From Senegalia massiliensis (GTDB taxonomy: Bacteria > Bacillota > Clostridia > Tissierellales > SIT17): a stretch of DNA of 24,000 bases. Below are positions 151-21,276 of this stretch, piece by piece. Each line of letters starts with the position of its first letter. The stretch's first letter is position 1. The notes under the pieces are model-generated. The model made no database searches and was not told the DNA's origin. It was given only the letters and a program-made list of their open reading frames with translations. The stretch lies in contig NZ_LR130785.1 in the NCBI RefSeq assembly GCF_900626135.1, positions 629,241 through 653,240 on the forward strand, in the 5' to 3' direction. Made by a program: the position numbers and the translations under genes.

Positions 151-162
151 GGAGTGTTTGTA

Positions 163-1095
163 ATGGAAAAAGAGAAGATAATATTAGATGTAGATCCAGG
201 TCATGATGACGCTATAGCTATAATGTTAGCAGCTAATAATCCAAAAATTGAATTACTTGGCATAACAGTAGTTGCAGGAAATCAAGTATTAGAAAAAACA
301 GTAAAAAACACTCTAAATGTGTGTTCTCACTTAGATATAAGAGTTCCTATAGCAGCAGGAATGTCAAAACCAATGGTTAGAGAACAAATAATTGCAGATG
401 ACATACATGGTGAAACTGGATTAGATGGTCCAGAATTTGGTGAAATTACAGTTGAATTAGATAAAAGACATGCAGTAGATTTTATTATTGATACACTTTT
501 GGAGTCTGATGGGGATATAACATTAGTACCTACAGGACCTTTATCAAATATAGCTATGGCAATGAGAAAAGAACCTAAAATTGTAGATAAAATCAAAAAA
601 ATTGTATTAATGGGAGGTGCTTATACATTAGGTAATGTAACACCTTCAGCAGAATTTAATATTTTAGTAGATCCAGAAGCAGCACATATAGTATTTACAT
701 CAGGAAGACCAATAGTAATGATGGGATTAGATTTAACTAGACAAGCATTAGCAAAACAAGAAGTTGTAGATAAAATAAATACAATAGGAAATAAAGCTTC
801 AGATTTATTTGTAGATATTATAGAGTTCTTTACAAAAACACAAAAAGAAGTTTTTGGATGGGAAGCACCACCAACACATGATCCTACAACTGTAGCATAT
901 TTAATTGACCCTTCAATAGTAGAAACTAAATCAATGTATACAGAAATAGAAATTTGGAGTCAATTATCATATGGTAGAACAATATGTGACTTCTTTAATA
1001 TAACAGGTAAAGAACCAAATGCAGAAATAGCTATAAATTTAGATTTTGATAAGTATTGGAATTTAATATATGACACATTAAAAATGTATAGTTAG
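163..1095 (+). CDS. Inosine-uridine-preferring nucleoside hydrolase family protein (RihA/B/C-like)
   Basis: The N-terminal motif ILDVDPGHDDAIAI matches the IUNH aspartate cluster DxDxxxDD. Length is about 310 aa. The track ORF starts at GTG 154, but AAGGAG at 149-154 sits 8 nt before ATG 163, so 163 is preferred. Confidence 0.88.
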   Translation: MEKEKIILDVDPGHDDAIAIMLAANNPKIELLGITVVAGNQVLEKTVKNTLNVCSHLDIRVPIAAGMSKPMVREQIIADDIHGETGLDGPEFGEITVELDKRHAVDFIIDTLLESDGDITLVPTGPLSNIAMAMRKEPKIVDKIKKIVLMGGAYTLGNVTPSAEFNILVDPEAAHIVFTSGRPIVMMGLDLTRQALAKQEVVDKINTIGNKASDLFVDIIEFFTKTQKEVFGWEAPPTHDPTTVAYLIDPSIVETKSMYTEIEIWSQLSYGRTICDFFNITGKEPNAEIAINLDFDKYWNLIYDTLKMYS

Positions 1096-1105
1096 GGTGA
1101 AAAAT

Positions 1106-2377
1106 ATGGATGAAAAATTATTAGAAACCTTTGAAAAAAATAAAAGAGAATACTTACACAGCTTAAAGAAATTAGTATCTATAGATACTCAACTATTAGG
1201 TCACGGAATATTAGGAGGAAAGGAAAAAGAAGGACAAGAATATATAGAAGAAATATTTAAGAGTTTAAATGCAGATGAAATATTCAAAGAACCTATGAAG
1301 GAAGAAACTATAGAACAAGCGTATAGAGAACATAATGAAGGTAATCTAGGTCATAACTATGAGGATAGATACAATGTAGTTGCAAAATTTAATGGAAAAT
1401 CTAAAGGAAAATCCATATTATTTAATGGACATATAGATACTATGCCTCCAGGAGAACTTTCAAAATGGAAAGAAAATCCACATAGTCCATATGAAAAAGA
1501 AGGAAAATTATATGGATTAGGAACTGCAGATATGAAGTCAGGTCTGATGGCATCTATAATGGCAGTTAAACTTATAAAAGATGCTGGATATGAAATACCT
1601 GTGGATATAACTATAACCTCTGTTGTAGATGAAGAAGGTGGAGGAAATGGATCTATAGCAGCTATAATGAATGGTCATAAAGCAGATACTGCTATTGTAT
1701 GTGAACCTTCTGAAAATAATATAATAGCAGCACATATGGGATTTGTATTCTTTGAAGTAAAAGTAAAAGGAGTAGCACTACATTCAGGATATAAATGGAA
1801 TGGAGTAAATGCAATAGAAAAAGCTATAAAATTGATACGAGCTTTAAACGACATGGAACATAAATGGCTTATGAAATATAAGCATCCTCTATTACCTCCA
1901 CCAACATTAAATATAGGAGTAATAGAAGGAGGTACTGCAGGATCTACAGTACCTGATGAATGTACATTTAAGCTATGTTTGCATTATTTACCAAAAGTTA
2001 TGAATTATGATCAAGTAGTAAAGGAAGTAACAGAAACTATAAACTTACGTGCTAAAGGGGACGACTGGTTACAAGATAATATGCCTGAAATATCCATATA
2101 TCAAGCAGGTGGAGCATTTGAAGTTGATTTAGAAGATGAATTTGTAAAATTAGCTAAAAGGTCTATGGAACAAGTAGTAGGGGACATACAATTACTTGGA
2201 GGAGCTGCTGGAAATGATGCTAGATTATTTTCAAATATATTAGAAGTTCCAACAATAATAATGGGACCTGGATATGCTAAACAATGTCATAGTCCTAATG
2301 AATATGTAAATATAGAAGACTATTTTAATTTTATAAAGATATATGCTAATTTGATATTAAATATGAATAAAGAATAA
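1106..2377 (+). CDS. M20 family metallohydrolase (ArgE/DapE/acetylornithine deacetylase-like)
   Basis: Typical M20 motifs are present: FNGHIDTMPPG, GLGTADMKSGL and a VDEEGGGNG metal-binding block. A dimerisation-domain-sized insert follows. The track start is GTG 1097; ATG 1106 is 6 nt after AGGGTG. Confidence 0.82.
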   Translation: MDEKLLETFEKNKREYLHSLKKLVSIDTQLLGHGILGGKEKEGQEYIEEIFKSLNADEIFKEPMKEETIEQAYREHNEGNLGHNYEDRYNVVAKFNGKSKGKSILFNGHIDTMPPGELSKWKENPHSPYEKEGKLYGLGTADMKSGLMASIMAVKLIKDAGYEIPVDITITSVVDEEGGGNGSIAAIMNGHKADTAIVCEPSENNIIAAHMGFVFFEVKVKGVALHSGYKWNGVNAIEKAIKLIRALNDMEHKWLMKYKHPLLPPPTLNIGVIEGGTAGSTVPDECTFKLCLHYLPKVMNYDQVVKEVTETINLRAKGDDWLQDNMPEISIYQAGGAFEVDLEDEFVKLAKRSMEQVVGDIQLLGGAAGNDARLFSNILEVPTIIMGPGYAKQCHSPNEYVNIEDYFNFIKIYANLILNMNKE

Positions 2378-2399
2378 AATATATTAGGAGGAATTTATT

Positions 2400-3140
2400 A
2401 TGAGTAGAATTTTATTTGCAGGAGAAACTTGGTTTACACATACTTTACATGTGAAAGGATTTGATTCTTTTACAACTAGTTCTTATGGTGAAGGTATAAA
2501 ATGGATAAAGGAAGCTTTAGAAGAAGGTGGAAATGAAGTAGTACATGTGCCTAATCATAAAGTACAAGAAGATTTTCCATATACATTAGAAGAATTAAAA
2601 GAATATGATTTAGTTATTCTTTCTGATATAGGATCAAACACATTATTATTACCTGATTCAACATTTGTAAAAAGTGAAAAAAATCCAGATAGATGTGAAT
2701 TAATAAAAGAATATGTAATGGATGGTGGAGCATTTATTATGATTGGTGGATATATGGCATTCACAGGAATAGATGCAAAGTCTAGATATGGAGAAACTGC
2801 TATAAAAGATGTATTACCAGTTAAATGCTTAGAAAAAGACGATAGAGTAGAATTACCACAAGGAATTACACCAGTAATAGAAAAAGAACATGAAATATTA
2901 AATGGTGTAGATAATAATTGGCCACATTTCTTAGGTTATAATAAAACTATTGCAAAAGAAGATGCAACAGTATTAGCAACCATAGGAAATGATCCATTTA
3001 TAGCTGTAGCAGAATATGGAAAAGGAAAATCAGCAGTATTTACTTCAGATTGTGCACCGCATTGGGGTCCAACTGAATTTGTAGAGTGGAAATATTATAA
3101 TAAGTTTTGGAATAATCTAATTGATTGGGTAACGAAATAA
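2400..3140 (+). CDS. Class-I glutamine-amidotransferase-like fold protein of unknown function (putative GATase1-like/DUF1355-type)
   Basis: 246 aa with RBS AGGAGG before ATG 2400. The blocks DLVILSDIGSNTLLL and GGAFIMIGGYMAFTG resemble the GATase1-like cytoplasmic protein family. This assignment is from memory and has not been searched. Confidence 0.45.
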   Translation: MSRILFAGETWFTHTLHVKGFDSFTTSSYGEGIKWIKEALEEGGNEVVHVPNHKVQEDFPYTLEELKEYDLVILSDIGSNTLLLPDSTFVKSEKNPDRCELIKEYVMDGGAFIMIGGYMAFTGIDAKSRYGETAIKDVLPVKCLEKDDRVELPQGITPVIEKEHEILNGVDNNWPHFLGYNKTIAKEDATVLATIGNDPFIAVAEYGKGKSAVFTSDCAPHWGPTEFVEWKYYNKFWNNLIDWVTK

Positions 3141-3151: not shown

Positions 3152-3191
3152 AAATAAATGACTTCTATAATTATAGAAGTCATTTATTTTT
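3152..3191 (+). terminator. Rho-independent terminator (19-bp perfect stem)
   Basis: aaataaatgacttctataa/ttatagaagtcatttattt is perfectly self-complementary around 3170/3171. The 3' arm runs into a T tract. Confidence 0.8.
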
Positions 3192-3246
3192 AATTCAAGT
3201 TAATTAGACCTTATGAGTAATTAAGTATGATAATTTTAAAATAATA

Positions 3247-3274
3247 TTGCATTATATAAAATATATGGTATAAT
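3247..3274 (+). promoter_or_regulatory. Sigma-A type promoter of the yhf-like operon (TTGCAT-16 nt-TGgTATAAT)
   Basis: -35 TTGCAT at 3247-3252. Extended -10 TGgTATAAT with TATAAT at 3269-3274. The predicted transcription start is about 3281, right at the 26-nt repeat. Confidence 0.6.
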
Positions 3275-3281
3275 GAAATTA

Positions 3282-3307
3282 CAATATACAAAAAAATGTA
3301 CATTGAA
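3282..3307 (+). promoter_or_regulatory. 26-nt repeat copy 1 (caatatacaaaaaaatgtacattgaa), candidate operator at +1 of the yhfZ promoter
   Basis: Identical 26/26 to 4266-4291. It contains the palindrome ATGTACAT and the imperfect inverted repeat ATATACA-AAAAA-TGTACAT. Confidence 0.5.
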
Positions 3308-3322
3308 GAAAGGCTAGATACG

Positions 3323-4255
3323 ATGAAGCAATATAAAGATAAATTAATGTCTAAAAATGGAAAAGTTATTATATCCCTTGCTAGAGAAATGTTAACTTAT
3401 TACTTAGATGACAGAATAAAAACAGTAAAAGAATATTCAGAGTCTTACAATACTGCTAGAGGAACTATTCAATCTGCTTTAAAATTTCTTCAAGAAATTA
3501 AAGCAGTAAAATTAGAATCTAGAGGTCATTTAGGCACATATATAGTTGATGTAGATTATGATAAGCTATGGTCTGTTTCAGATTTTAATGTAATAATGGG
3601 TGTTATGCCTTTACCTTATTCTAAAAGATATGAAGGACTAGCTACTGGTTTTTATAAGAACTTTGAAAAAAGGAATATACCTTTTAGTTTAGCTTTTATG
3701 AGAGGTTCAAGTAAAAGGATTGAAGCCTTAACTCTTGGAAGATATAATTTTGCTATTACTTCAAAGTTAGCTGCTAGGTTAGAGATGAGAAAATCTTCTA
3801 ATATTGAAATAGCATATGAATTTGGAGAAGAAAGTTACGTTGGTAGACATGTAATAGTCTTGAGAGATAAGAATAAATTTGAGATAGAAAAAAATATGAG
3901 AGTAGCAATAGATACCCAATCTATTGATCAAATTATATTAACATCTAATGAATGTAAAGATAAAGATATAGAATATATAGAAACTCCTTATAATCAGATA
4001 TTAAATAAGATGAGCAATAATGAAATTGATGCAGCTATTTGGAATGTTGATGAAATAAAAGAAAAAAATTTAGAGTATAATATAGTACCTATGTCTAATA
4101 AAGAGAGTTCAGCTAAAGATGATACTATTGCAGTAGTAGTAATAAGAAAAGACGATAAAGATTTTAGTAATATTTTAAATAGATTTATAGACCTTTATAA
4201 AGTAGAACAGATACAACAAAAGGTAATGAAAGATGAATTGATACCAATTTATTAA
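3323..4255 (+). CDS. yhfZ: YhfZ-like transcriptional regulator (N-terminal wHTH plus C-terminal binding-protein-like domain)
   Basis: About 310 aa, against about 301 aa remembered for E. coli YhfZ. It is the first gene of a cluster holding all other yhf homologs. The track start ATG 3296 lies inside the repeat and has no SD. ATG 3323 is 9 nt after AAGG. Confidence 0.65.
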   Translation: MKQYKDKLMSKNGKVIISLAREMLTYYLDDRIKTVKEYSESYNTARGTIQSALKFLQEIKAVKLESRGHLGTYIVDVDYDKLWSVSDFNVIMGVMPLPYSKRYEGLATGFYKNFEKRNIPFSLAFMRGSSKRIEALTLGRYNFAITSKLAARLEMRKSSNIEIAYEFGEESYVGRHVIVLRDKNKFEIEKNMRVAIDTQSIDQIILTSNECKDKDIEYIETPYNQILNKMSNNEIDAAIWNVDEIKEKNLEYNIVPMSNKESSAKDDTIAVVVIRKDDKDFSNILNRFIDLYKVEQIQQKVMKDELIPIY

Positions 4256-4266
4256 AAATTTATATC
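4238..4266 (+). promoter_or_regulatory. Possible internal promoter (TTGATA-17 nt-TATATC) inside the yhfZ 3' end
   Basis: The spacing is good but the -10 is weak. It abuts repeat copy 2, with different geometry from copy 1. Confidence 0.3.
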
Positions 4267-4291
4267 AATATACAAAAAAATGTACATTGAA
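4266..4291 (+). promoter_or_regulatory. 26-nt repeat copy 2, candidate operator in the yhfZ-yhfY intergenic region
   Basis: Perfect copy of 3282-3307. It ends 13 nt before the yhfY ATG, just 5' of the SD GGAGGTG. Confidence 0.5.
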
Positions 4292-4304
4292 TGGAGGTGT
4301 AATT

Positions 4305-4664
4305 ATGGACGATTTATTAAAACAAAGACTTGAACTTTTAGAACAGGCTAGTGAAATAGATAGTGATATAAAAAATACTGTTATAGAGTTTGCTGACAAA
4401 TTTGAAAAGAAATATTCTTTAGAAATGACTGAAGATAATTCTTCAATGTTAATAACTCACTTAGCTATGGCGTTATCTAGAATTAAAAAAGGTGAAATAG
4501 TAGAAGCTATGGATAGCTTAGCTTTAGATGAGATTAAACAATGCAAAATTTATAATGATTTACCTGAGTTTTATAATGATATTGAGGAAAGGTTAAATAT
4601 AATTTTACCTCAATCAGAAAAGGATTTTATAGCACTTCATGCATGTACTTTAGTACTAAAATAA
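4305..4664 (+). CDS. yhfY: Stand-alone PRD-domain protein (YhfY-like)
   Basis: About 119 aa, against about 120 aa for E. coli YhfY. It is helical, and the segment MLITHLAMALSRIKKGE resembles a PRD phosphorylatable-His helix. The track start TTG 4287 overlaps the repeat. ATG 4305 follows GGAGGTG. Confidence 0.6.
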   Translation: MDDLLKQRLELLEQASEIDSDIKNTVIEFADKFEKKYSLEMTEDNSSMLITHLAMALSRIKKGEIVEAMDSLALDEIKQCKIYNDLPEFYNDIEERLNIILPQSEKDFIALHACTLVLK

Positions 4665-4678
4665 AAGGAGGTAGTATA

Positions 4679-5041
4679 ATGGTTAAATTTGTAGTTGGAG
4701 GACAAGTAGAAAAGCAAAATATCGCTGATCTAATAAAAGAAGTTGGAGGTGAAGATGTAGAAGTAACTGTAAAATCAGATTTACAAGCAGCTAATGATGT
4801 TAAGTCTGGTAAAGCTGATTATTATTTAGGCGCATGTCATACTGGCGGCGGTGGAGCACTTAGCATGGCTATAGCTTTACTTACTAGAGCTAAAACTTCA
4901 ACAATATCTATGCCTGGTAAACCACCTAAAGAAGAAGATATTATAAAAGCTGTAAATGAAGGAAAATTAGCATTTGGTTTTACAGGTGATCATTACGAAA
5001 AAGCAGTTCCTATAATTGTAAGAGAAATTTTAAAAAAATAA
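4679..5041 (+). CDS. yhfU: DUF2620 family protein (YhfU-like)
   Basis: 120 aa, against about 117 aa for E. coli YhfU. It has a beta-alpha N-terminus (KFVVGG) and a Cys-His-Gly-rich loop (YLGACHTGGGGALSMA). AAGGAGG at 4665-4671 precedes ATG 4679; the track start 4643 overlaps yhfY. Confidence 0.6.
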   Translation: MVKFVVGGQVEKQNIADLIKEVGGEDVEVTVKSDLQAANDVKSGKADYYLGACHTGGGGALSMAIALLTRAKTSTISMPGKPPKEEDIIKAVNEGKLAFGFTGDHYEKAVPIIVREILKK

Positions 5042-5057
5042 ATAGAGGAGTGAAAAA

Positions 5058-6338
5058 ATGAAAATAGTAATAATATCATTAATCGGTGCTTTAGCTTCTA
5101 TAATGGCTAACAAAGGTATAGCAGTATTTAATGATGGATTAAGACCTATAGTTCCAGAACATATTGAAGGAAGAATGAGTAGAAAAGAACTTGCAGCTAC
5201 TTCATTTGCTATGAGTTTTGGATTAGTTATAGGATTTGGAATTCCATTCTCATTAACAGCAAGCATTCTTTTAATACATTCAATATTATTAGGTACAGAT
5301 ATAATTGGTACTTTTTCACCAGATGGAAAAAAAGGTTTAGCAATATCAGGAATAGTTGGGGCTCTTTATGGAGCAGGAATATTACTAGGACTCGAAAGTG
5401 TAGTTAAAGCGTTTGAAATGTTACCAGTGAATTTCATGGGAAGTTTAGGTGAAGTTGGAGCTCCAATAGTAATAGCATTTGCAGCATTCCCAGCTCTTGC
5501 TACTGGATATCAATATGGAGCTAAAAAAGGTTTAATAAACTTAGGTTTTTCTATGTTAGCAAGACAAATTGCTATAGTTGTAAGTCCACTTGCAATAGGA
5601 GCAGTTTCAATAAATGTTAACCCTGAAGGTTCAGCACTAATTGTAGGTATGATTATATTAATTATTTATGCAGTAAGGGAAAAATCAGATGAAGAAGCTG
5701 TAGATTTAGTATCAGTATTTGCAGAAAGAGTAAAAAGAATAAAGAAAAATGTACCATATTTAATAGTTATGGGTGCACTTGTAGCAGCTGCTACTTCTTT
5801 AAACTTAATGGCAGGAGATCCTATCTCTCTTAATTTATTAGCAGAAGGTAAGAACATAGATGCAGGCTTTGCAGCTTTAGCTAGAGGTATTGGTTTTATA
5901 CCATTAATAGCATCTACTGCAATAGCAACAGGTGTATATGGTCCTATAGGAATGACTTTTGTATTTGTTGTAGGATTATTTATAGCAAATCCATTTGTAT
6001 CAGCAATTCTTGGTGGACTTGTTATTGGAATAGAAGTATTATTCTTAGATAAAATTTCTAAGTTGTTAGATAAATTCCCAGGCGTTAGAAAGTCTGGAGA
6101 CAATATACGTACTGCAATGTCAAAATTACTTGAAATTGCACTATTAGTTGGAGGTATGAATGCAGCTAATGCAATAGCTCCTGGTATTGGTTTCTTTGTA
6201 GTTATAGGTCTTTATATATTAAATGAAATAGCAGGTAAACCAGTAGTTAAAATGGCTGTAGGTCCTATATCAGCAATATTAGTTGGAGTACTTGCAAATA
6301 TCCTTTCAATTCTAGGGTTATTTACTCCACCAGCATAA
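5058..6338 (+). CDS. yhfT: Polytopic inner-membrane protein (YhfT-like putative transporter)
   Basis: 426 aa, against about 434 aa for E. coli YhfT. It is very hydrophobic and Gly/Ala/Ile-rich, with roughly 10-12 predicted TM segments. RBS GAGGAG. Confidence 0.65.
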   Translation: MKIVIISLIGALASIMANKGIAVFNDGLRPIVPEHIEGRMSRKELAATSFAMSFGLVIGFGIPFSLTASILLIHSILLGTDIIGTFSPDGKKGLAISGIVGALYGAGILLGLESVVKAFEMLPVNFMGSLGEVGAPIVIAFAAFPALATGYQYGAKKGLINLGFSMLARQIAIVVSPLAIGAVSINVNPEGSALIVGMIILIIYAVREKSDEEAVDLVSVFAERVKRIKKNVPYLIVMGALVAAATSLNLMAGDPISLNLLAEGKNIDAGFAALARGIGFIPLIASTAIATGVYGPIGMTFVFVVGLFIANPFVSAILGGLVIGIEVLFLDKISKLLDKFPGVRKSGDNIRTAMSKLLEIALLVGGMNAANAIAPGIGFFVVIGLYILNEIAGKPVVKMAVGPISAILVGVLANILSILGLFTPPA

Positions 6339-6346
6339 AATTATAT

Positions 6347-6384
6347 TTCTAACAAAGTCAAGGATATCCTTGACTTTGTTAGAA
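6347..6384. other. 38-nt perfect palindrome / intercistronic stem-loop (18-bp arms)
   Basis: ttctaacaaagtcaagga-ta-tccttgactttgttagaa. It is not followed by a T tract on the + strand (gataaaaaagg), so it is not a canonical terminator. Confidence 0.7.
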
Positions 6385-6404
6385 GATAAAAAAGGGGAAT
6401 TAGT

Positions 6405-7520
6405 ATGGATGAAACACAAAAAAATATATTATCACAAATGAATAAAGTTAGTAAGGCTATGTTAAAAGCAAAAGAAGAACTAAACAAAAGTGTAGTGTAT
6501 CAAAGAAAAGGTGTTCTAGATCAAGCTGTAATTACTCTTGAAAAAAATCCTAATAGCAATTTAACATTATTTGGCATCAAAAATACAGGTGAAATTGGAA
6601 TTGAGATGGCAATGAAATTAGAAAATGAAGCTGGATATTTTTTTCATACTATAGATAAAATGTCTGAAAGAGGAAGGGCTATAGATATAGACTTAATTAA
6701 TCCATTGACGGGAAGAGTAATGACAGGTTCATCTAGTGGTGGCTGTGTCAATATATTAAAGGGAATAAATGATTTAGCCATAGGTACTGATGGAGGTGGT
6801 TCTGTTTTAGCTCCTGCTATAAGTACTGGTCTTTTTTCAATTATGGCAAAAGGAATGGGGTTAAAAGGAAATAGCATCAAATCTTCAACTGATAATATAA
6901 AATTTACCCCTGGTATAGGAGTAATATCTCATAATTATAATATGTGTAAAATAGCTTTAAATGCACTTGTAGATAAAAATCATAATACAAATAGTAACAA
7001 AAAAATTAGAGTTCTTGTTCCAAAGAAAAATTCCATTACTCTTCCTAATGGTAATGATATGAGAGATGATTTAGAAAGAGTAATAAATCTAATAAAAGAG
7101 TATGTAGAAATTGTGGAAAAAGATTTTACTAGTTTAGAAGATAGACATTCTTCAATTTCTTTCTGTAATAAAATGTTTGATGAAGAGGATATAGATATTA
7201 TTTTATCTGTAGAAGGGCCAATAGATTTATATGGACTAGGTGATTCAGTATTAGGTACATGGGGAGAAGTTGGATCTGAAATACAAAATGACTCTGGTAA
7301 ATATTTATTGAAAATAGCTAATATGATTAATGCTACAGCTGTAAGTATACCTACTTCTGAGCTAGGTATGGGAGTTCTTATTATGGCTAAGGAAGGTTTA
7401 GAAAATGGTGAAATTGCTATAGAGTTAGGAGATAAAATAAGAGAATTATATGATAGACCAGAATTATATAATAGATATTTTATTGAAGAACACAAAAGCA
7501 AAAGTCTAGATTTTATATAA
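6405..7520 (+). CDS. Divergent, short amidase-signature (AS) family protein
   Basis: The AS core is TGSSSGGCVNILKGINDLAIGTDGGGSVLAPA (about nt 6726-6818), matching GGSSGG...G[ST]DxGGSxRxPA. Candidate triad: K59 (FGIKN), S109/S110 and S133. At 371 aa it is shorter than typical amidases of about 450-500 aa. Confidence 0.6.
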   Translation: MDETQKNILSQMNKVSKAMLKAKEELNKSVVYQRKGVLDQAVITLEKNPNSNLTLFGIKNTGEIGIEMAMKLENEAGYFFHTIDKMSERGRAIDIDLINPLTGRVMTGSSSGGCVNILKGINDLAIGTDGGGSVLAPAISTGLFSIMAKGMGLKGNSIKSSTDNIKFTPGIGVISHNYNMCKIALNALVDKNHNTNSNKKIRVLVPKKNSITLPNGNDMRDDLERVINLIKEYVEIVEKDFTSLEDRHSSISFCNKMFDEEDIDIILSVEGPIDLYGLGDSVLGTWGEVGSEIQNDSGKYLLKIANMINATAVSIPTSELGMGVLIMAKEGLENGEIAIELGDKIRELYDRPELYNRYFIEEHKSKSLDFI

Positions 7521-7538
7521 ATAAACAGGAGGTATAAA

Positions 7539-8447
7539 ATGAGTATAATAACTGTAAATGGAGAGATAGATAAAAATAGCTTAGGGTCGACTTATATACA
7601 TGAGCATTTAAGTGTTGATTTATCAGCTCATAAAAAAGATCCTGATACTAATTTTGATGATGTGGAATCATTGATTGATGAGATTAAAAATATAAAAAGT
7701 AAAGGCATAGATAGTATTGTAGAAGTTACAAATAGAGGTATGGGCAGAAATATAGAAGTAATGAAAAGAGTAGCAGATGAAACCGGAATCAATGTTATAG
7801 CTAGTACAGGATTTTATAAGGAACCTTTCTTGCCATCATATGTATATGAAATGGAAGAAAAAGAGTTAAGTAAGCTTTTAATAAAAGATCTTACAGAAGG
7901 AATAGATAATACTGATATTAAAGCCCATGTAATAGGTGAAATTGGTACTAGTAAGGATACTATGACAGATATGGAACATAAAATATTTAGAGTAGCAGCT
8001 AGAGCTCATCTTGAAACTGGTAGAGTTTTCTCTACTCATACTACATTAGGAACCTATGCTATAAAACAAATAGAATTTATGAAAAAACACAATATTGATC
8101 TTAGTAAAGTAGTTATAGGTCATTTAGATTTAAACTGTGATTCCGATTATCATTTAAGAATTGCTGATAATGGATGCTATTTAGCTTTTGATACAATAGG
8201 AAAAAATAATTATGAGAAAGATGAAGTACGTGTTAAATATATAAAGAATTTAATAGATAGAGGACATTTAAATCAAATAGTACTTTCTCAAGATATAACT
8301 AGAAAATCTCATTTAAAAATGAATGGTGGTATTGGTTATGATCATTTAATAGATAATTTTATACCAAAGCTTTTAGAGGCAGGAATAACACAATCACAAA
8401 TTGATAAAATGTTAAAAGAAAATCCACGTGAATTATTGGATATATAG
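7539..8447 (+). CDS. php: Phosphotriesterase homology protein (Php/YhfV-like amidohydrolase-superfamily enzyme)
   Basis: 302 aa. HxH metal motif TYIHEHL. VIGEIGTS carries a Glu where phosphotriesterases have the carbamylated Lys, as in E. coli Php. The further ligands STHT, IGHLD and LSQD are present. Confidence 0.82.
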   Translation: MSIITVNGEIDKNSLGSTYIHEHLSVDLSAHKKDPDTNFDDVESLIDEIKNIKSKGIDSIVEVTNRGMGRNIEVMKRVADETGINVIASTGFYKEPFLPSYVYEMEEKELSKLLIKDLTEGIDNTDIKAHVIGEIGTSKDTMTDMEHKIFRVAARAHLETGRVFSTHTTLGTYAIKQIEFMKKHNIDLSKVVIGHLDLNCDSDYHLRIADNGCYLAFDTIGKNNYEKDEVRVKYIKNLIDRGHLNQIVLSQDITRKSHLKMNGGIGYDHLIDNFIPKLLEAGITQSQIDKMLKENPRELLDI

Positions 8448-8458
8448 GGGGAATATAG

Positions 8459-9565
8459 ATGAAAGCATATCCTATAGAGACTATTAATATAGATAAGGCA
8501 AAAGAAAAACAATTTAAACTAGTTGATATAATTCATCAACATTTTGATGGTTATGAATTTCTCCAAAATGGAGATATGGGTGTAGTGCCAGGTGTAGGTG
8601 GTCCAAAATATACTAGAAAAGTAGAAAGTGTATTAGCAGATTTTTTTGGTTCAGAAGATGCTGTTTTAGTTCGTGGCTCAGGTACTGGAGCTATAAGAAA
8701 TGTAATGAATACAGTATTAAAACCTAATCAAAAAATATTAATTCATGATGCACCAATATATCCAACTACAAAAGTAATAATTGATAGTATGGGAATTGAA
8801 ACTATTAAAGTTAATTTTAATAATATTTCAGAAAAAGATGAAGAAAAAATTAGAAATATAGACTTTGCTCTAGTTCAACATTCAAGGCAAAAATTAGATG
8901 ATAGCTATAATTTAGAAGATGTAATAAACAAAATTAAAAAGGTTAATAAAAATATAAATATATTAGTAGATGATAACTATGTTGTAATGAAAGCTGATAA
9001 AATAGGCGTAGAACTTGGAGCAAGTGCAAGTGCTTTTTCATTATTCAAATTATTAGGACCAGCAGGAATAGGTTGTGTTGTTGGTAATACAGAAATAATA
9101 GAGAAAATAAGGAATATTAACTATTCTGGCGGTAGTCAAGTTCAAGGATATGAAGCTATGGATGCTTTAAGGTCATTAGTATATGCACCTGTTTCACTAG
9201 CAATTCAAGCTGAAGAAGGAAATAAAATTATAGATACATTAAATTCAGGAAAAATTAAAGGGGTAAAATCTTCTCTTATTGCAAATGCACAATCAAGAGT
9301 TATATTAGTTGAGTTTGATGAACCTATAGCAAAAAAAGTTTTAGAATATAGTTCAAAATTAGGGGCAGCTCCTTACCCAATTGGAGCTGAATCTAGATAT
9401 GAAGTTACTGCTATGTTTTATAGAGTTTCTGGGACGTTTTTGAAATCTAATCCTAAGTTAGAAGATTATATTATACGTATAAATCCAATGAGAGCAGGTT
9501 CAAAAACTGTTCTTAGAGTATTAGAGCAAGCTATAGAAATGGCCCTTCAAAGAGGTGATAATTAG
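8459..9565 (+). CDS. yhfS: YhfS-like fold-type-I PLP-dependent enzyme
   Basis: 368 aa, against about 361 aa for E. coli YhfS. Motifs: GSGTGAIRN, VDDNY and SAFSLFKLLGP (candidate PLP lysine). Confidence 0.65.
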   Translation: MKAYPIETINIDKAKEKQFKLVDIIHQHFDGYEFLQNGDMGVVPGVGGPKYTRKVESVLADFFGSEDAVLVRGSGTGAIRNVMNTVLKPNQKILIHDAPIYPTTKVIIDSMGIETIKVNFNNISEKDEEKIRNIDFALVQHSRQKLDDSYNLEDVINKIKKVNKNINILVDDNYVVMKADKIGVELGASASAFSLFKLLGPAGIGCVVGNTEIIEKIRNINYSGGSQVQGYEAMDALRSLVYAPVSLAIQAEEGNKIIDTLNSGKIKGVKSSLIANAQSRVILVEFDEPIAKKVLEYSSKLGAAPYPIGAESRYEVTAMFYRVSGTFLKSNPKLEDYIIRINPMRAGSKTVLRVLEQAIEMALQRGDN

Positions 9566-10741
9566 ATGTTTTTAGATATGACAATAAAAAGAAATGAAAA
9601 CTTAATAAAATCTGCAATAGACCTTCATAAAAATGGTCTAATTAAACCTAATTCATATGTATTAGATATAGATTCTATAAGAGAAAATGCATCTAAATTA
9701 GCTAAGAAAGCAAAAGAATTAAATATAGAATTATATATGATGACAAAACAAATAGGTAGAAATCCTAAAGTTGCTGAAATAATAGCAGAAAGTGGTATCA
9801 AAAAAGCTGTAGCTGTAGACCCATGGGAAGCTATAAGACTAGCAGAATCTGGAGTGAAACTTGGAAATGTAGGTCATTTGGTGCAAATACCTACTAGTAT
9901 GATTAGACAAATTCTATCTTATAAGCCTGAAGTAATAACAGTATTTACATTAGATAAAGCAATAGAAATTTCAGAACAGGCTATAAAATTAGGAATGGTT
10001 CAAGATATATTATTAAAAGTTGTAGGAGAAAATGATAGATTATATCCAGGACAAATAGGTGGATTTAAAGAAAAAGAACTTATACAATATGCAGATAAAA
10101 TAAGAAAATTAAAGGGAGTAAATATAGTAGGAGTTACTGCTTTTCCATGCTTTTTATATAATTATGAAGCGAATAAAATAGAACCTACAAAAAATGCTCA
10201 TACAGCTATAAGATGTGCAAACATGTTAAAGGAAAAGTTAGATATCAACATAAAACAAGTAAATATTCCTAGTGCTAATACTATAGCTTCATTACCATTA
10301 TTAAAAGATATGGGAGGTACTCATGGAGAGCCAGGTCATGCTTTAACAGGTACTACACCTCTTCATGGTGACAATATATTAGAAGAAAAACCTGCTATGG
10401 TTTATGTAAGTGAAATATCACATTGTTTTGATGATAAGGCATATGTATATGGTGGTGGCTTTTATAGAAGATCTAGAATGAAAAAGGCTATGGTAGGTAA
10501 AGATTTTGAAAAGATGAAAGAAAATATATTTGAAATAGAAGAAATTGATCCTGAAGCTATAGACTATTACGGTACGTTAAAACTTGGAAATAAAAGTGTA
10601 GAAGTAGGAGATACAGTAATATATGCTTTTAGAACACAAATATTTGTAACAAGAAGTGAAGTAGTTTTAGTTGAAGGAATACAAAAAAACAATCCTAAAA
10701 TTATTGGAGTTTATGATAGTCAAGGAAATGAAATACGATAA
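9566..10741 (+). CDS. yhfX: YhfX-like fold-type-III PLP enzyme (alanine-racemase N-terminal-domain family)
   Basis: 391 aa, against about 387 aa for E. coli YhfX. YMMTKQIGRNP holds the candidate PLP lysine. The ATG directly abuts the yhfS stop (TAG ATG). Confidence 0.65.
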   Translation: MFLDMTIKRNENLIKSAIDLHKNGLIKPNSYVLDIDSIRENASKLAKKAKELNIELYMMTKQIGRNPKVAEIIAESGIKKAVAVDPWEAIRLAESGVKLGNVGHLVQIPTSMIRQILSYKPEVITVFTLDKAIEISEQAIKLGMVQDILLKVVGENDRLYPGQIGGFKEKELIQYADKIRKLKGVNIVGVTAFPCFLYNYEANKIEPTKNAHTAIRCANMLKEKLDINIKQVNIPSANTIASLPLLKDMGGTHGEPGHALTGTTPLHGDNILEEKPAMVYVSEISHCFDDKAYVYGGGFYRRSRMKKAMVGKDFEKMKENIFEIEEIDPEAIDYYGTLKLGNKSVEVGDTVIYAFRTQIFVTRSEVVLVEGIQKNNPKIIGVYDSQGNEIR

Positions 10742-10758
10742 ACAAGGTGGTGACAAAA

Positions 10759-11967
10759 TTGAAAAAAAGAGCAATAATATTAATATTAGATAGCTTAGGT
10801 GTTGGATATATGGATGATGTAGAAGAAACTAGACCTCAAGATATAGGTGCAAATACTTTTAAGCATATATTAGATAATGCTAAAAATATAGAAATACCTA
10901 ATTTAGAAAAGCTAGGCATAAATAAGATAGTAAAGCATAATAGACTTAAGGAAACTAAAAATAAAGCTAGTTATGGTAAATTAAATCTTAAGCACTATGG
11001 AGCAGATAGTTATGCAGGTCATCAAGAGATTATGGGAACTGATCCAAAAAAACCTTTGATGAAACCTTTTGTGTATTATATAGATAAAGTAAAATCAGCT
11101 TTAGAAGAGGCAGGATATAAGGTTCAAATACCAAATAAAGAAAAACCATATATATTGGTAAATGAATTAGTAGTAGTTGCGGACAATATAGAGACAGATT
11201 ATGGACAGATATATAATATAAGTGCTCCACTTGATTATATATCCTTTGACGAAGTTATGGAAATTGGAAAGATTGTAAGAAAAAATGTAGAAGTGAATAG
11301 AGTTATAGCTCTAGGTGGTAGAGATGTAAAACTAGAACAATTAATTGATAGTATAGAGCAAAGGGAAGATGGTTTAGTTGGTGTTAATTCTCCTAAATCA
11401 GGAGTGTATAAATCAGATTATCATGCAAGGCATATGGGATATGGTGTTGACCCTGAAAAACAAATTTCATCTATATTATCAAATTCAGATAAAGAAGTTA
11501 CTTTGATTGGCAAAATGCAAGATGTTATTGAATGTAGTGATGCAACTAAAATACCTGCAGTTGATACAGAACTAGTAATGGAAAAAATATTAGTTAGTCT
11601 TGATAATATGAATGAAGGGTTAATATCAGCTACAGTTCAAGAAACAGATTTAAGAGGACATGCACAAGATGTAGAAGGATATGCTGAAAAGATAATGATT
11701 GTAGATAAATATTTAGAAAGCATATTAGAAAAAATGACTGACGAAGATATTTTATTTATAAGCGCAGATCATGGAAATGACCCTACAAGTGATAATAGTC
11801 AACATACTAGAGAAAAGACATTTTTATTGGTATATGGTAAAAATATAAAAAATGTTAATATAGGTGAAAGAAAAACTCTCTCAGATATATCAGCTACAAT
11901 AGCAGATTATTTTAAGGTAAATAAGCCTGAGAATGGTGAAAGTTTTTATGATATGTTAGTTGAGTGA
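10759..11967 (+). CDS. yhfW: YhfW-like phosphopentomutase-family (alkaline-phosphatase superfamily) mutase
   Basis: MKKRAIILILDSLGVGYM resembles the DeoB N-terminus. GADSYAGHQE aligns with DeoB GKDTxTGHWE, placing Ser at the phospho-acceptor position. ISADHGNDPT matches the ADHGxDP metal motif. TTG 10759 is 8 nt after AAGGTGG; the track start is GTG 10747. Confidence 0.75.
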   Translation: MKKRAIILILDSLGVGYMDDVEETRPQDIGANTFKHILDNAKNIEIPNLEKLGINKIVKHNRLKETKNKASYGKLNLKHYGADSYAGHQEIMGTDPKKPLMKPFVYYIDKVKSALEEAGYKVQIPNKEKPYILVNELVVVADNIETDYGQIYNISAPLDYISFDEVMEIGKIVRKNVEVNRVIALGGRDVKLEQLIDSIEQREDGLVGVNSPKSGVYKSDYHARHMGYGVDPEKQISSILSNSDKEVTLIGKMQDVIECSDATKIPAVDTELVMEKILVSLDNMNEGLISATVQETDLRGHAQDVEGYAEKIMIVDKYLESILEKMTDEDILFISADHGNDPTSDNSQHTREKTFLLVYGKNIKNVNIGERKTLSDISATIADYFKVNKPENGESFYDMLVE

Positions 11968-12304: not shown

Positions 12305-12502
12305 ATGAATGGTACAGTAAAATGGTTTAACGCAGAAAAAGGATTTGGATTTATCACAGGAGAAGACGGAAAAGATGTATTCGCTCACTTTTCTCAAATT
12401 CAAAAAGATGGTTTCAAAACTTTAGAAGAAGGTCAAGAAGTAGAATTTGACGCAGTTGAAGGACAAAAAGGTCTTCAAGCAGAAAATATCGTTGCTAAAT
12501 AA
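12305..12502 (+). CDS. Cold-shock protein, CspA family (single CSD)
   Basis: 65 aa. RNP1 KGFGFI and RNP2 VFAHF motifs are present. RBS AGGAGG. Confidence 0.95.
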
Positions 12503-12512: not shown

Positions 12513-12546
12513 AACCCTAGGATATAATATATTCTAGGGTTTTTTG
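12513..12546 (+). terminator. Rho-independent terminator of csp
   Basis: The stem aaccctagga/ttctagggtt is followed by tttttg. Confidence 0.8.
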
Positions 12547-12846: not shown

Positions 12847-14427
12847 TTGATAAAAGTTATTATAGCAGACGATGAAAAAAGAATATTAAAACTCATAGAA
12901 AAATTAATTCAATGGGAAAAATTAGGTCTACAAATTGTAGGAAAAGCTAATGATGGTATAGAAGCAATAGAGCTTATAAAAGAAAAGAAGCCAAATATAG
13001 TTATTACTGATATTCGTATGCCTGGTTATGATGGCTTAGAAATGATAGAAAGAGCAAGAAATATAGATGAAAATTTACAGTTTATTATCATAAGTGGATA
13101 TGAACAATTTGAATATGCTAAAAAGGCAATAGGCTTTGGAGTAAAGGATTATTTATTAAAACCTATAAATAAACAAAAACTCACTAGAACATTAATTAAT
13201 GTAAAAAAACATATCAAAGAAAATATTGATATAGAAATTGTAAAGAAAGATGTTAATTTAATAAGAACATCTTTTTTAAATAATGCTCTTTTTAAAAATG
13301 AAGGATTAAATAATACTAATGTATCTCAAGTTAATGAAAAATATCATTTTAACTTTATAGAAAAATATTTTAATGTTGTTTTATTTAAAATTGATTATAA
13401 TACAAAACTATATAATGATATAACAGTTATGACTACAGAAATAGTTAATATAATCAAAGAAAACTTAAAATCAGATGTAAATGAATGTGAAATTATAACA
13501 AACAAAAATAATATATATTTAATATTAAATTATAATTTAAAACAATTAGAAAATATTGAAATATCCATACAACAGGTGCATAAAAAAATAATTGAGTATA
13601 TTATCGGAATAAAGAATTTTCAAGTAACCATTTCATATGGAAGTCAAGCTCAGAAAATTAATGATCTAAATATTTCTTTCCATGATTCTAATTCAATTAT
13701 TGAAGATAGAATACTTTATGGTAAAAACAAAATATATAAATATAAAGAAATATTACCTATAAAAAAAGAGGTAGAAGATATATTTTATGTTTTTTTCAAA
13801 AGATTTATAAAGTATGTGGAAATGTTAGATTATGCAAAAATAGAATATAGTTTTATGAAATTTAAGCAAGATATAAGCAATATGCCTTTAAGAGGAATAA
13901 ATTTAAAAGATTTTTTTCAGGAACTATTTAAAGCATACTATTTAGTATTAAAAAACAATAAATTCAAAAAGAATAATTTAAGTGAAGAACATAAAGATAT
14001 TAAAAATATTATTGATAATTCAGATTCAATAGACGGATTATTTAGTGATTCATTACAATATTTATTAGAAGATATAAATTCAATAACTAAAAAAAGCTTT
14101 CAAAATAATATGATAGAAATAATAAAAGCTAAAGAATTTATAGAAAAAAATTATATGGAAAATATAAAGTTAGAAGACGTAGGAAACTATATAGGATTTA
14201 ATCCAAGTTATTTTAGTAGTGTTTTTAAAAAAGAAACAGGCACTTCCTTTGTAGAATATCTTTCAATGGTAAGAATAGAAAAAGCCAAAGAATTATTAAA
14301 GGAATCTGATCTTAAGATTCAAGATATATCTAGTATGATTGGCTATAATGATTCTAAATATTTTACTAAGACATTTATAAAATATAGTGGCTTAAAACCA
14401 AAAGAATATAGAAAACTATTCGTGTAG
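12847..14427 (+). CDS. Response regulator, REC plus AraC-type HTH output (YesN-like) with an unusually long middle region
   Basis: REC motifs DD(8-9), D55 in VITDIRMPGYDG, and LLKP. The C-terminal AraC HTH pair runs YFSSVFKKETG...YFTKTFIKYSGLKPKEYR. TTG start is 9 nt after AGGAG. About 300 Asn/Lys/Ile-rich residues lie between the two domains. Confidence 0.88.
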   Translation: MIKVIIADDEKRILKLIEKLIQWEKLGLQIVGKANDGIEAIELIKEKKPNIVITDIRMPGYDGLEMIERARNIDENLQFIIISGYEQFEYAKKAIGFGVKDYLLKPINKQKLTRTLINVKKHIKENIDIEIVKKDVNLIRTSFLNNALFKNEGLNNTNVSQVNEKYHFNFIEKYFNVVLFKIDYNTKLYNDITVMTTEIVNIIKENLKSDVNECEIITNKNNIYLILNYNLKQLENIEISIQQVHKKIIEYIIGIKNFQVTISYGSQAQKINDLNISFHDSNSIIEDRILYGKNKIYKYKEILPIKKEVEDIFYVFFKRFIKYVEMLDYAKIEYSFMKFKQDISNMPLRGINLKDFFQELFKAYYLVLKNNKFKKNNLSEEHKDIKNIIDNSDSIDGLFSDSLQYLLEDINSITKKSFQNNMIEIIKAKEFIEKNYMENIKLEDVGNYIGFNPSYFSSVFKKETGTSFVEYLSMVRIEKAKELLKESDLKIQDISSMIGYNDSKYFTKTFIKYSGLKPKEYRKLFV

Positions 14428-14436
14428 GTGTGTGAA

Positions 14437-15450
14437 ATGAAATTTAAAAAAGATAATTATTATTTATTAGATAGAATATGGATACTTTTTATTATTAATT
14501 TTGTAGCAAATATTATAGTTTTTATATATTTATTATTTAATATTGAAACTATAAGTAATTATATTTTTTTAGCATTATGGTCTATTTTTATAATTGGAAT
14601 AGTTTATATTTCATATAAATGGGTCTATGAACCACATAAAAAGATAGCTAAAGTTTTAAAATTATTTTATAAAGGAGATATCTTCAAAGGTGTATTTAGT
14701 CTTAGAGTGCATATAAGTCATGAAACATATAAGACCTTTGCAAAGTTTAGAGAAATAATAGATACAAAAGAACTTATAGAAGGTTCCAAAAAACATGCTG
14801 AATATTTAGCACTTCAAAATCAAATCAACCCTCATTTTCTATATAATACCCTTGAAGCAATAAGGAGTGAGGCATTAATAGAAGAGGTTGATAGTATAGC
14901 AGATATGACAGAGTCTCTAGCAACATTTTTTAGATATACAATTTCAAATATATCTAAACTTGTTACTCTTAGTGATGAATTAGAAAATTTGAAAAATTAT
15001 TATAAGATTCAAAAGTTTAGATTTGATGATAAAATAAATTTAAATATTAAATATGAGATAGATGATATAGGACAAGCATTGAGAGCTAAAATCCCTAAAT
15101 TAACTTTACAACCTATTTGTGAGAATGCAATATTTCATGGATTAGAAACAAAGGTTGGTAAAGGAGAAATAACTTTAAGAATTAGAGCTACTGAAAAAAG
15201 ACTTATTATTTTAATATCAGATAATGGTGTAGGAATTGATGAAAAAAAAGTTGATAAAATAAATAAAAAACTTAGAGGAGCATCCTTAGAATATATGAAA
15301 AAAGATAGTAATAATCAAGGTGGTATAGCCTTGATTAATGTAAATAACAGAATAAAACTTATTTTTGGTGATGAATATGGTATTTATATGTATAGTAGGT
15401 TAGGTGCTGGAACTGATGTTGAAATAACTATACCATTTGTATTAGATTAA
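14437..15450 (+). CDS. Sensor histidine kinase, YesM/LytS-type (His_kinase PF06580-like plus HATPase_c), two TM helices with a loop of about 7 residues
   Basis: H-box LQNQINPHFLYNTLEAI, N-box ENAIFHGL, G-boxes DNGVGI and GGIALINV. TM1 ILFIINFVANIIVFIYLLF and TM2 YIFLALWSIFIIGIVYISY are separated only by NIETISN. The track start GTG 14428 abuts the upstream stop; ATG 14437 follows TAGGTG. Confidence 0.85.
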   Translation: MKFKKDNYYLLDRIWILFIINFVANIIVFIYLLFNIETISNYIFLALWSIFIIGIVYISYKWVYEPHKKIAKVLKLFYKGDIFKGVFSLRVHISHETYKTFAKFREIIDTKELIEGSKKHAEYLALQNQINPHFLYNTLEAIRSEALIEEVDSIADMTESLATFFRYTISNISKLVTLSDELENLKNYYKIQKFRFDDKINLNIKYEIDDIGQALRAKIPKLTLQPICENAIFHGLETKVGKGEITLRIRATEKRLIILISDNGVGIDEKKVDKINKKLRGASLEYMKKDSNNQGGIALINVNNRIKLIFGDEYGIYMYSRLGAGTDVEITIPFVLD

Positions 15451-15478
15451 TTTTAAATTTAAATAAAAGGTTGATATT

Positions 15479-16888: not shown

Positions 16889-16958
16889 AAACCTTTTTAA
16901 AATCTAATGAATGTCCCCCTAAATCAAAAGAATATCTACCTCGTCGTATTATTAGTTA

Positions 16959-16967
16959 TGGTACTAT
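16959..16967 (+). promoter_or_regulatory. Possible activator-dependent promoter of the ABC operon (TGgTACTAT, no -35)
   Basis: Extended -10 at 16959-16967. The -35 position reads cctcgt, consistent with dependence on an AraC-type activator. This is weak evidence. Confidence 0.3.
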
Positions 16968-16997
16968 GTATTTAAATAATAATAACAAAGATATTTA

Positions 16998-19570: not shown

Positions 19571-19621
19571 ATTAAGTTATTAAAGGGAAACCTTTAAAAA
19601 TAAAAAAATGGAGGGAATAAA

Positions 19622-20554: not shown

Positions 20555-20573
20555 TAGAGTTCCAAAATAAATT

Positions 20574-20600
20574 AGAGAGGTTACAAAAGTAACCTCTTTA
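20574..20600 (+). terminator. Stem-loop after the binding-protein gene (weak terminator or mRNA stabiliser)
   Basis: agaggttac-aaaa-gtaacctct followed only by ttta. The next gene's SD begins 11 nt later, so read-through is likely. Confidence 0.45.
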
Positions 20601-20622
20601 AACTATATATGAGGTGATATTA

Positions 20623-21273: not shown

Positions 21274-21276
21274 TTT

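Follow-up and report, generated by a model that had tools for sequence, protein, structure and literature searches.

An amidase-bearing variant of the orphan yhf gene cluster in Senegalia massiliensis, with a predicted regulator-operator pair and a possible link to cell-wall fragments

The yhf cluster of Escherichia coli K-12 (yhfZ-yhfY / yhfX-yhfW-php-yhfU-yhfT-yhfS; b3376-b3383) consists, in the most thoroughly investigated of all bacteria, of eight adjacent genes without an assigned function; crystal structures of three of its proteins have long been available, and the substrate has still not been found. Here we describe its counterpart in a 24,000-nt stretch of the Senegalia massiliensis genome (contig NZ_LR130785.1, positions 629,241 to 653,240), referred to below as the window, in which positions 3247-11967 form one tightly packed plus-strand operon with the order yhfZ-Y-U-T, amidase, php, yhfS-X-W. 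A first-pass annotation of this DNA had recognized the yhf genes and had considered them to lack an assigned role. We found no functional study of the yhf genes, DUF2620 or Php in the searchable literature, subscription-only papers lying outside the search, and a riboswitch paper mentions the E. coli yhf operon merely as a landmark. Nor do database names assign a role: the 2026 copies of RefSeq carry the E. coli yhf genes under generic names, and in the 2026 PDB the structures of YhfS (4j8l) and YhfX (4kbx) are entered as "uncharacterised" and those of Php (1bf6, 4lef) as "phosphotriesterase homology protein."

When compared by BLASTP with the K-12 locus, eight window proteins each match exactly one E. 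coli partner (YhfZ, YhfY, YhfU, YhfT, Php, YhfS, YhfX or YhfW) over nearly the full length, with 29-51% identity and E values from 1e-11 to 7e-136. The one-to-one correspondence put forward in the first-pass annotation therefore stands; the amidase has no partner in the K-12 yhf locus. The lengths of the window open reading frames (ORFs) and of the E. coli proteins agree closely (YhfZ 319/301, YhfY 125/120, YhfU 132/117, YhfT 426/434, Php 302/292, YhfS 368/361, YhfX 391/387, and YhfW 406/408 residues). YhfZ and YhfW surpass the cutoffs of their NCBIfam equivalog models, and the Pfam models for YhfT, DUF2620, YhfS-like_C and YhfX-like_C are matched above threshold. In alignments of 45-82 sequences per family, to which the E. 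coli protein was added wherever an orthologue exists, the catalytic residues expected for each family are conserved in at least 97% of sequences, and as judged from these alignments all of those expected in the window proteins are intact; E. coli has the same residues. The region is thus orthologous to E. coli yhfZY plus yhfXW-php-yhfUTS and constitutes a self-contained operon, that is, an amidase-bearing variant of a known, uncharacterized family rather than a new kind of system. The two loci differ in that E. coli has another gene order, keeps yhfY and yhfZ as a separate unit, and possesses neither the amidase gene nor an intercistronic hairpin. The E. coli cluster, which was found in 5,062 of 5,426 complete E. 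coli genomes, adjoins the frl genes, as had been stated earlier, with frlABCDR lying beside yhfS.

The nine plus-strand ORFs follow one another at 3296-11967 with gaps of 0-66 nt. The closest sequenced genome is that of Anaeromonas frigoriresistens, whose YhfT is 91% identical and whose DNA aligns with the window at 79% over positions 3236-11949, the alignment ending on both sides there. Since homology is confined to this segment, the module boundaries are those of the first-pass annotation. Its left coordinate, 3247, coincides as a boundary with the limit of homology, but as a gene start it does not hold: it is not a codon but belongs to a -35 hexamer. The left boundary is further marked by a perfect 38-nt palindrome followed by a T-run (3152-3189, plus strand), likely the terminator of the preceding operon.

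A scan at one genome per species returned 376 loci with a YhfT relative, of which the best 80 were compared. Every one of the 80 carries several further yhf genes beside yhfT, and these occur in at least five different orders, so the gene set is indeed retained despite shuffling, as had been proposed from the E. coli comparison. The order seen in the window, Z-Y-U-T-A-P-S-X-W (where A is the amidase gene and P is php), is common to Peptostreptococcales-type Clostridia, Thermoanaerobacterales, Halanaerobiales and the fusobacterium Cetobacterium, in which the cluster resides on a megaplasmid; other orders are found in Bacilli, Vagococcus, Negativicutes, E. coli and Vibrio. The cluster occurs chiefly in Gram-positive lineages. 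Among the more divergent loci, two Negativicutes/Bacillota metagenome-assembled genomes (L037, L038) have two yhfT copies per cluster in the order Y-T-P-S-X-W-T-[NYN-domain protein]-U-A, with neither yhfZ nor the operator described below detected. A 485-kb Bacillus thuringiensis plasmid (NZ_CP126475; L088, 104012-112776) carries a reduced Y-U-T-P-S-X set, lacking yhfZ and yhfW and followed by two ATP-grasp genes.

The yhfZ promoter (3247-3274, plus strand) comprises a -35 element TTGCAT (3247-3252), a 16-nt spacer and an extended -10 element TGgTATAAT (3266-3274). Directly after it lies an operator (O1, 3282-3305, plus strand) made up of a 9-bp inverted repeat with a 6-nt spacer, CAATATACA-AAAAAA-TGTACATTG. 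A motif search revealed an exact second copy of the 24-bp site (O2, 4266-4289, plus strand) in the yhfZ-yhfY gap, preceded by a possible promoter, TTGATA-16-TTATAT (4238-4265, plus strand); two exact copies of CAATATACA-N6-TGTACATTG in the window compare with 0.21 expected by chance. In 14 aligned upstream regions the TTG of the -35 element and TGnTATAAT are conserved, and together with the operator they stay conserved in DNA that is otherwise unalignable. Allowing up to three mismatches, the operator is present in 69 of 81 loci, in most of them once before yhfZ and once before yhfY. Where the cluster has been rearranged, the operator precedes the lead gene of each sub-operon, whatever the order; for instance, Vagococcus has it before yhfU, and the Oceanobacillus group has it at the X|A junction, ahead of the amidase gene. 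In Cetobacterium the site before yhfZ reads ATTTTCA-A6-TGAAAAT. E. coli has a variant, the perfect inverted repeat AAATATTCA-AAAAAA-TGAATATTT, in the yhfY-yhfX gap upstream of yhfX (L001:16978-17060) and a related site before yhfZ; no mention of the yhfY-yhfX repeat was found in the searched literature. In both organisms a 7-9 bp inverted repeat surrounds A6 ahead of regulator genes and of enzyme genes, with half-sites of TTCA/TGAA in E. coli versus TACA/TGTA in the window. Because the operator tracks the lead genes of sub-operons and holds beyond the Firmicutes, we regard it as the signature of one regulator following its regulon.

The obvious candidate for this regulator is YhfZ (3323-4255, plus strand; ribosome-binding site GAAAGG), a GntR-type helix-turn-helix protein with a solute-binding-protein-like effector domain, and O1 is its predicted binding site. 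YhfZ scores 404 bits against the NF041241 equivalog (cutoff 260), matches HTH_41 and YhfZ_C, and is 34% identical to E. coli YhfZ. The second regulatory protein, YhfY (4305-4664, plus strand; ribosome-binding site GGAGG), consists of a single PRD domain (E 4e-13, 50 bits against a cutoff of 23) without a DNA- or RNA-binding domain; its His58 and Arg65 are retained by no fewer than 97% of 70 sequences. The earliest in-frame start codon of yhfZ (3296), like that of yhfY (4287), falls within an operator. From the positions of ribosome-binding sites and operators and from alignment, the likely starts are 3323 for yhfZ, 4305 for yhfY and 4679 for yhfU, and these revised starts give orthologue-like lengths. 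YhfZ would repress both operator sites until a pathway ligand binds, and YhfY, through its conserved His, would couple expression to the phosphorylation state of the phosphotransferase system (PTS), probably via HPr. Taken as a whole, the yhf genes would be a repressor-controlled, PTS-modulated catabolic operon.

The ninth gene (6405-7520, plus strand) codes for a short (371 aa), cytoplasmic hydrolase of the amidase-signature type, in which no signal peptide was found. Its triad K59/S109/S133 is invariant and corresponds to the Lys, cis-Ser and Ser of amidase-signature enzymes, within the motif GSSSGG...GTDGGGSV. The protein is approximately 100 residues shorter than typical members, and its match to PF01425 (23.5 bits, cutoff 27) covers residues 103-144 only, short of a full-length family match. 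It had initially been looked upon as a local addition to the cluster. This is not so: Geosporobacter, Thermoanaerobacterium, Halanaerobium and Cetobacterium have the gene at the corresponding point of their clusters, and it is a fixed member of the Clostridia/Fusobacteria form across four orders or phyla. It was found in 29 of the 59 complete clusters for which 3 kb or more of flanking sequence was available.

A second type of hydrolase turns up in other clusters. Seventeen loci encode a PF00144 protein 33-38% identical to E. coli YfeW over its full length, and all 17 genes lie inside the yhf operon or directly adjoin it without an intervening gene, three of them being divergent and sharing the operator-bearing intergenic region. 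A signal peptide and the SxxK motif are present in all ten of the proteins examined. The cluster PF00144 proteins score best against PBP4B (NF002968, 242-317 bits, cutoff 385). One or both hydrolases occur in 43 of the 59 complete clusters, 24 having the cytoplasmic amidase only, 14 the secreted hydrolase only, and five both; the two show a tendency towards mutual exclusion (Fisher p = 0.025, uncorrected for phylogeny). AmiE of Bacillus subtilis is also a PF00144 protein (PMC10653849), namely a secreted exo-MurNAc-L-Ala amidase (MurNAc, N-acetylmuramic acid) encoded in the MurNAc operon of that organism (PMC8054146, PMC5061867), and in E. coli yfeW comes after murQ-murP. These precedents, together with the interchange of a secreted for a cytoplasmic enzyme, suggest that the same amide bond is cleaved outside the cell in some cases and following uptake in others.

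Other accessory genes, too, have ties to the cell wall. A true NagB (307-330 bits; TIGR00502 cutoff 237) is encoded near the cluster in eight loci, inside it or contiguous with it in six of these; no NagA was seen among the cluster neighbours. In Anaeromonas gelatinilytica (L015, 5354-9700) the amidase gene has been deleted, its last ~20 codons remaining in the yhfT-php gap, and a complete Lac/Cel-type PTS (IIB-IIC-IIA) and MupG are inserted between yhfU and yhfT. A Thermoanaerobacter locus (L031) has MupG and a MurQ-like gene just upstream of the cluster. In Halanaerobium kushneri (L024:7059-8156) an L-Ala-D/L-Glu-epimerase-like gene of the enolase superfamily (248 bits, cutoff 500) stands immediately before yhfZ; it is itself preceded by a gene for an Fe-type alcohol dehydrogenase. 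Because the hydrolases interchange and NagB, MupG, MurQ-like and dipeptide-epimerase-like genes join the clusters, peptidoglycan fragments are the best-supported source of substrate. Our tentative first choice is accordingly the bacterial cell wall, the substrate being some piece of peptidoglycan, for example a muramyl- or amino-sugar-peptide conjugate, though with somewhat less than even confidence.

Four further enzymes are encoded downstream of the amidase. Php (7539-8447, plus strand) is a binuclear metallohydrolase of the phosphotriesterase (PTE) family with the ligands H21, H23, E134, H167, H195 and D252, of which E134 is the Glu bridging the binuclear site as in E. coli Php. Its best PDB match is E. 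coli Php (1e-84), the next being lactonases and PTEs at about 1e-43 (8e-43 for the next hit), and it scores 331 bits against PRK09875 (cutoff 486). YhfS (8459-9565, plus strand) is a fold-type I pyridoxal-phosphate (PLP) enzyme with a YhfS-like_C domain and conserved Lys197 and Asp171. In profile comparison with the PDB its nearest solved relatives are C-S lyases, methionine gamma-lyases among them (E 1e-12), rather than classical aminotransferases. E. coli yhfS (L001:10936-12021) is annotated in RefSeq as a "putative aminotransferase," yet its family profile lies nearest to methionine gamma-lyases, C-S lyases and cysteine desulfurases. YhfX (9566-10741, plus strand) is a fold-type III PLP enzyme (Lys61; Ala_racemase_N plus YhfX-like_C) far from all characterized members of that fold, alanine racemases being matched at E 2e-5 and D-Thr/D-3-hydroxy-Asp aldolases at E 5e-3 in the same kind of comparison. 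YhfW (10747-11967, plus strand) is a phosphopentomutase-like protein of the alkaline-phosphatase superfamily. It is best placed in the separate YhfW-type model PRK12383 (560 bits, cutoff 254) and reaches 165 bits against the DeoB equivalog TIGR01696 (cutoff 341). Its Mn ligands and the Ser/Thr nucleophile at position 88 (S88) are conserved; we take this position to align with the phospho-Thr of Bacillus phosphopentomutase.

YhfU (DUF2620; 4679-5041, plus strand, within an ORF opening at 4643) possesses the loop D-Y-Y-x-G-A-C-x-T-G-G-G-G-A-L. Its structure was predicted with a pLDDT of 96, and the top 15 PDB matches of the model are all RpiB (E 1e-4 to 5e-3, TM 0.64-0.75). The invariant Cys-x-Thr lies in a loop at the end of strand 3, and a His is conserved as well. 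A weak profile alignment sets the Cys-x-Thr on the catalytic Cys66-Gly-Thr68 of E. coli RpiB, and in E. coli YhfU this loop is also where the LacAB_rpiB model is matched, below threshold (Pfam E 0.065). Comparison of the DUF2620 profile with a single RpiB sequence was not significant (hhalign probability 1.6%), so the link to RpiB rests on the predicted fold and the position of the motif. The position of RpiB Asp9/His10 is Gly-Gly in YhfU, and a counterpart of the phosphate-binding Arg residues was not identified; furthermore, YhfU is shorter (~118 aa) than the RpiB/LacAB isomerases and is, unlike them, almost always encoded beside a membrane protein. The modelled fold can thus be described as RpiB-like with the position of the catalytic dyad kept, short of established membership in the RpiB family. 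A role as PTS enzyme IIB was considered and rejected, since YhfU resembles RpiB far better in the structure search (EIIB-Lac at E 0.03, rank 29).

YhfT (5058-6338, plus strand; PF10797, E 3e-178) is a polytopic membrane protein and presumed permease, and its gene neighbours yhfU in nearly every gene order. Its model (pLDDT 85) has no meaningful fold match among the membrane proteins of the PDB, PTS EIIC included (best E 0.036, TM <0.21). The family is small and isolated, with 327 of 1.84 billion 50%-identity representatives matched at E ≤0.001, many of them fragments. YhfT may represent a new transporter family.

In the pathway that we propose, YhfT would import the substrate together with the RpiB-like YhfU, and the cytoplasmic Ser-cisSer-Lys amidase would begin by deconjugating it through cleavage of an amide bond, a task that in other lineages would be performed outside the cell by the secreted YfeW/AmiE-like hydrolase. 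Php might then open an ester- or lactone-type bond, YhfU and YhfW might isomerize the sugar-phosphate part and shift its phosphate, and YhfX (racemase- or aldolase-like) and YhfS (lyase-like) might process a part of the alpha-amino-acid type. In the clusters bearing nagB, glucosamine-6-phosphate would be a likely product.

Several observations weigh against this derivation from the cell wall. Neither a publication nor an experiment was found tying any yhf gene to peptidoglycan, and the neighbour of the E. coli cluster is frl. The characterized PTE-family relatives of Php cleave esters, lactones and phosphotriesters, and we know of no peptidoglycan bond of these types. The cluster contains neither a kinase nor a recognizable PTS permease as a source of phosphate, and the pathway roles given to YhfW and YhfU are guesses. 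Sixteen of the 59 complete clusters have neither hydrolase, the clusters of E. coli and Vibrio lack both, and the co-occurrence counts are uncorrected for shared ancestry. The enzymatic role of PBP4B is itself uncertain, being that of a DD-carboxypeptidase in E. coli versus that of a MurNAc-L-Ala amidase in AmiE. Lastly, murQ, murP, nagA, nagB, nagZ and HPr genes are all absent from the vicinity of the yhf cluster in the window.

The frl neighbourhood in E. coli raises the alternative of glycated amino acid (Amadori/Heyns) catabolism, in line with the sugar-amino acid or glycosylamine conjugates suggested in the first-pass annotation. Here a sugar-amino acid conjugate would be imported, the amidase would turn an Asn/Gln-type conjugate into the acid and the PLP enzymes would process the released amino acid. 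The effector domain of YhfZ, which weakly resembles amino-acid-binding proteins (SBP_bac_3, E 0.004), and the two PLP enzymes would be in keeping with such a substrate, and the sugar-phosphate-type YhfU and YhfW fit it also. However, none of the clusters examined encodes the SIS-type deglycase or the kinase by which the frl, fra and gfr systems are defined, nor are frl-like neighbours a recurring feature of the 80 loci. Instead, the recurring accessory genes (YfeW/AmiE-like, NagB, MupG, MurQ-like) are cell-wall related and point more to peptidoglycan-derived material than to Amadori compounds; we consider the glycated substrate unlikely.

We give an equally small chance to a pathway for a phosphorylated (amino-)sugar lactone or amino-aldonate, imported with phosphorylation, for which Php would be the phospho-sugar lactonase, YhfX and YhfS would epimerize and deaminate a 2-amino-2-deoxy-aldonate phosphate (compare the D-glucosaminate enzyme DgaE of Salmonella), and rearrangement of the sugar phosphate would fall to YhfU and YhfW. 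With E. coli Php set aside, the nearest relatives of window Php do include PDB lactonases and the phospho-furanose lactonase model NF045706, but the latter is matched at 123 bits against a cutoff of 630 (E 1e-35). The PRD protein and the presence of HPr directly 3′ of the cluster in two genomes are in its favour, as is the weak likeness of YhfU to the distantly related SFCGS family (E 0.002), the only other family it touches; against it, YhfT shows no EIIC fold, YhfU is much nearer to RpiB than to EIIB, and an EIIA is absent. The faint resemblance of YhfX to D-Thr and D-3-hydroxy-Asp aldolases likewise speaks for this pathway, whereas the cluster contains no aldolase or dehydrogenase and the secreted YfeW-like hydrolase would be left unexplained.

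The ester-hydrolase character of the PTE family, the missing kinase, the alanine-racemase-like YhfX and the secreted PF00144 enzyme would all be accounted for by salvage of teichoic-acid fragments (D-alanyl-glycerol- or D-alanyl-ribitol-phosphate). The substrate would arrive already phosphorylated. Php would strip off the D-alanyl ester, leaving D-Ala to be dealt with by YhfX and YhfS; YhfW would shift the phosphate from one terminal hydroxyl to another, and the PF00144 protein would be an FmtA-like D-Ala esterase. The concentration of the cluster in Gram-positive lineages agrees with this. The proposal is purely inferential, however; the PF00144 proteins score best against PBP4B, the amidase, NagB and MupG are left without a role, and E. 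coli, Vibrio and Cetobacterium make no teichoic acid yet keep the cluster, all of which renders it quite improbable. Very unlikely, finally, is a non-nutrient role in which the genes make or detoxify a small molecule (an antimetabolite or signal) and YhfT is an exporter: the lack of a known substrate and the reduced B. thuringiensis plasmid cluster near ATP-grasp genes would allow it, but a promoter covered by a repressor-type operator, a regulator with an effector-binding domain, control through a PRD, an abundance of hydrolases, the attachment of nagB and secreted scavenging hydrolases are typical of catabolic operons, and ligase, synthetase and resistance-type genes are absent from the conserved set.

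Directly after the yhfT stop codon there is a 17-bp intercistronic stem-loop (6347-6384, plus strand) followed by an A-run, not a U-run; the whole yhfT-amidase gap has a minimum free energy of -26 kcal/mol. A stem-loop occurs at 22 of 23 yhfT-to-amidase junctions, the structure being kept while the sequences are unrelated, and yhfT-to-php junctions are mostly 10-30 nt long and unstructured. The element is probably an attenuator or transcript-stabilizing structure, not a full terminator, tuning the ratio of the regulator and transport genes to the enzyme genes. A scan of the window for Rfam families returned none.

Upstream of the cluster, an operon at 154-3140 encodes a RihA/RihB-like pyrimidine nucleoside hydrolase (438 bits against PRK09955, cutoff 459), an ArgE/DapE-family M20 deacylase (TIGR01910, above cutoff) and a GATase1_like protein (PF07090). 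The first-pass annotation had linked this operon with the yhf genes. We reject a functional connection because the operon has its own terminator (3152-3189) between it and the cluster, a motif search of the window found no yhf-type operator ahead of it, and homologues of its three genes adjoin the yhf cluster in only one locus each of the 80. On the 3′ side of yhfW lies an unrelated 65-aa cold-shock gene (12305-12502; CSD, E 9e-30); its untranslated leader is long, a clean terminator of its own follows at 12513-12541, and it separates the yhf operon from the next gene block. Decayed nagB or HPr genes, considered for the 880 nt after yhfW, were rejected since the stretch holds this gene. Positions 12847-23128 are a separate sugar-utilization block with genes for an AraC-type response regulator, a His_kinase sensor, an ABC ATPase, permease and sugar-binding protein, a GmhA-like SIS protein with an N-terminal extension of ~100 aa, and two ROK kinases, one of them near ScrK fructokinase. 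The stretch 13000-17000 is strikingly AT-rich (GC 0.20-0.23).

The Firmicute form of the cluster and its ~80 relatives make an old question testable, offering a predicted YhfZ operator, candidate peptidoglycan-fragment substrates and an amide bond as the point of entry; the fold assignment for DUF2620 and the membrane protein YhfT, perhaps of a new transporter family, provide further handles. Should the connection with the cell wall prove true, peptidoglycan recycling and the use of necromass by gut and sediment bacteria would gain a widespread branch.

Beyond E. coli yhf and the RpiB/LacAB isomerases, three further groups invite comparison. The phospho-furanose lactonases (PTE family, cog1735; NF045706) have the superfamily and metal site in common with Php, and share with the yhf genes a context of sugar-phosphate handling and PTS-related regulation. 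They are reportedly, from work of the Raushel laboratory, encoded beside PTS permeases. Php differs in having the Glu bridging ligand of E. coli Php, and the yhf cluster does not include a PTS permease. The orphan SFCGS/DUF4310-DUF4312 cluster (TIGR03577 family, EF_0830/AHA_3911), for which we found no functional study in the literature, resembles yhf in its make-up: like the latter it brings together membrane proteins, a PRD protein, a PLP enzyme, an amidohydrolase and a small protein rich in Gly. The families themselves differ in every instance; YhfU touches SFCGS weakly, as noted, and YhfS weakly matches TIGR03576.

The MurNAc recycling operons (murQ-murR-murP-amiE-nagZ-namZ in B. subtilis; murQ-murP-yfeW in E. 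coli) share with some yhf loci the joining of a secreted PF00144 hydrolase to an operon for uptake and catabolism, and the NagB, MupG and MurQ-like genes that occasionally accompany yhf clusters recall them further. Unlike these operons, the window has no MurQ etherase, MurP PTS or NagZ and thus does not belong to them, and the eight core yhf proteins have no counterpart there, so that the resemblance is one of gene neighbourhood only. It is possible, if rather doubtful, that yhf constitutes an undescribed, MurQ-independent route for amino-sugar or D-amino-acid conjugates from the cell wall, with uptake by a transporter of a new kind in which YhfT, a membrane protein without a known fold, is joined by the RpiB-like YhfU as a cytoplasmic catalytic subunit chemically trapping the entering substrate.

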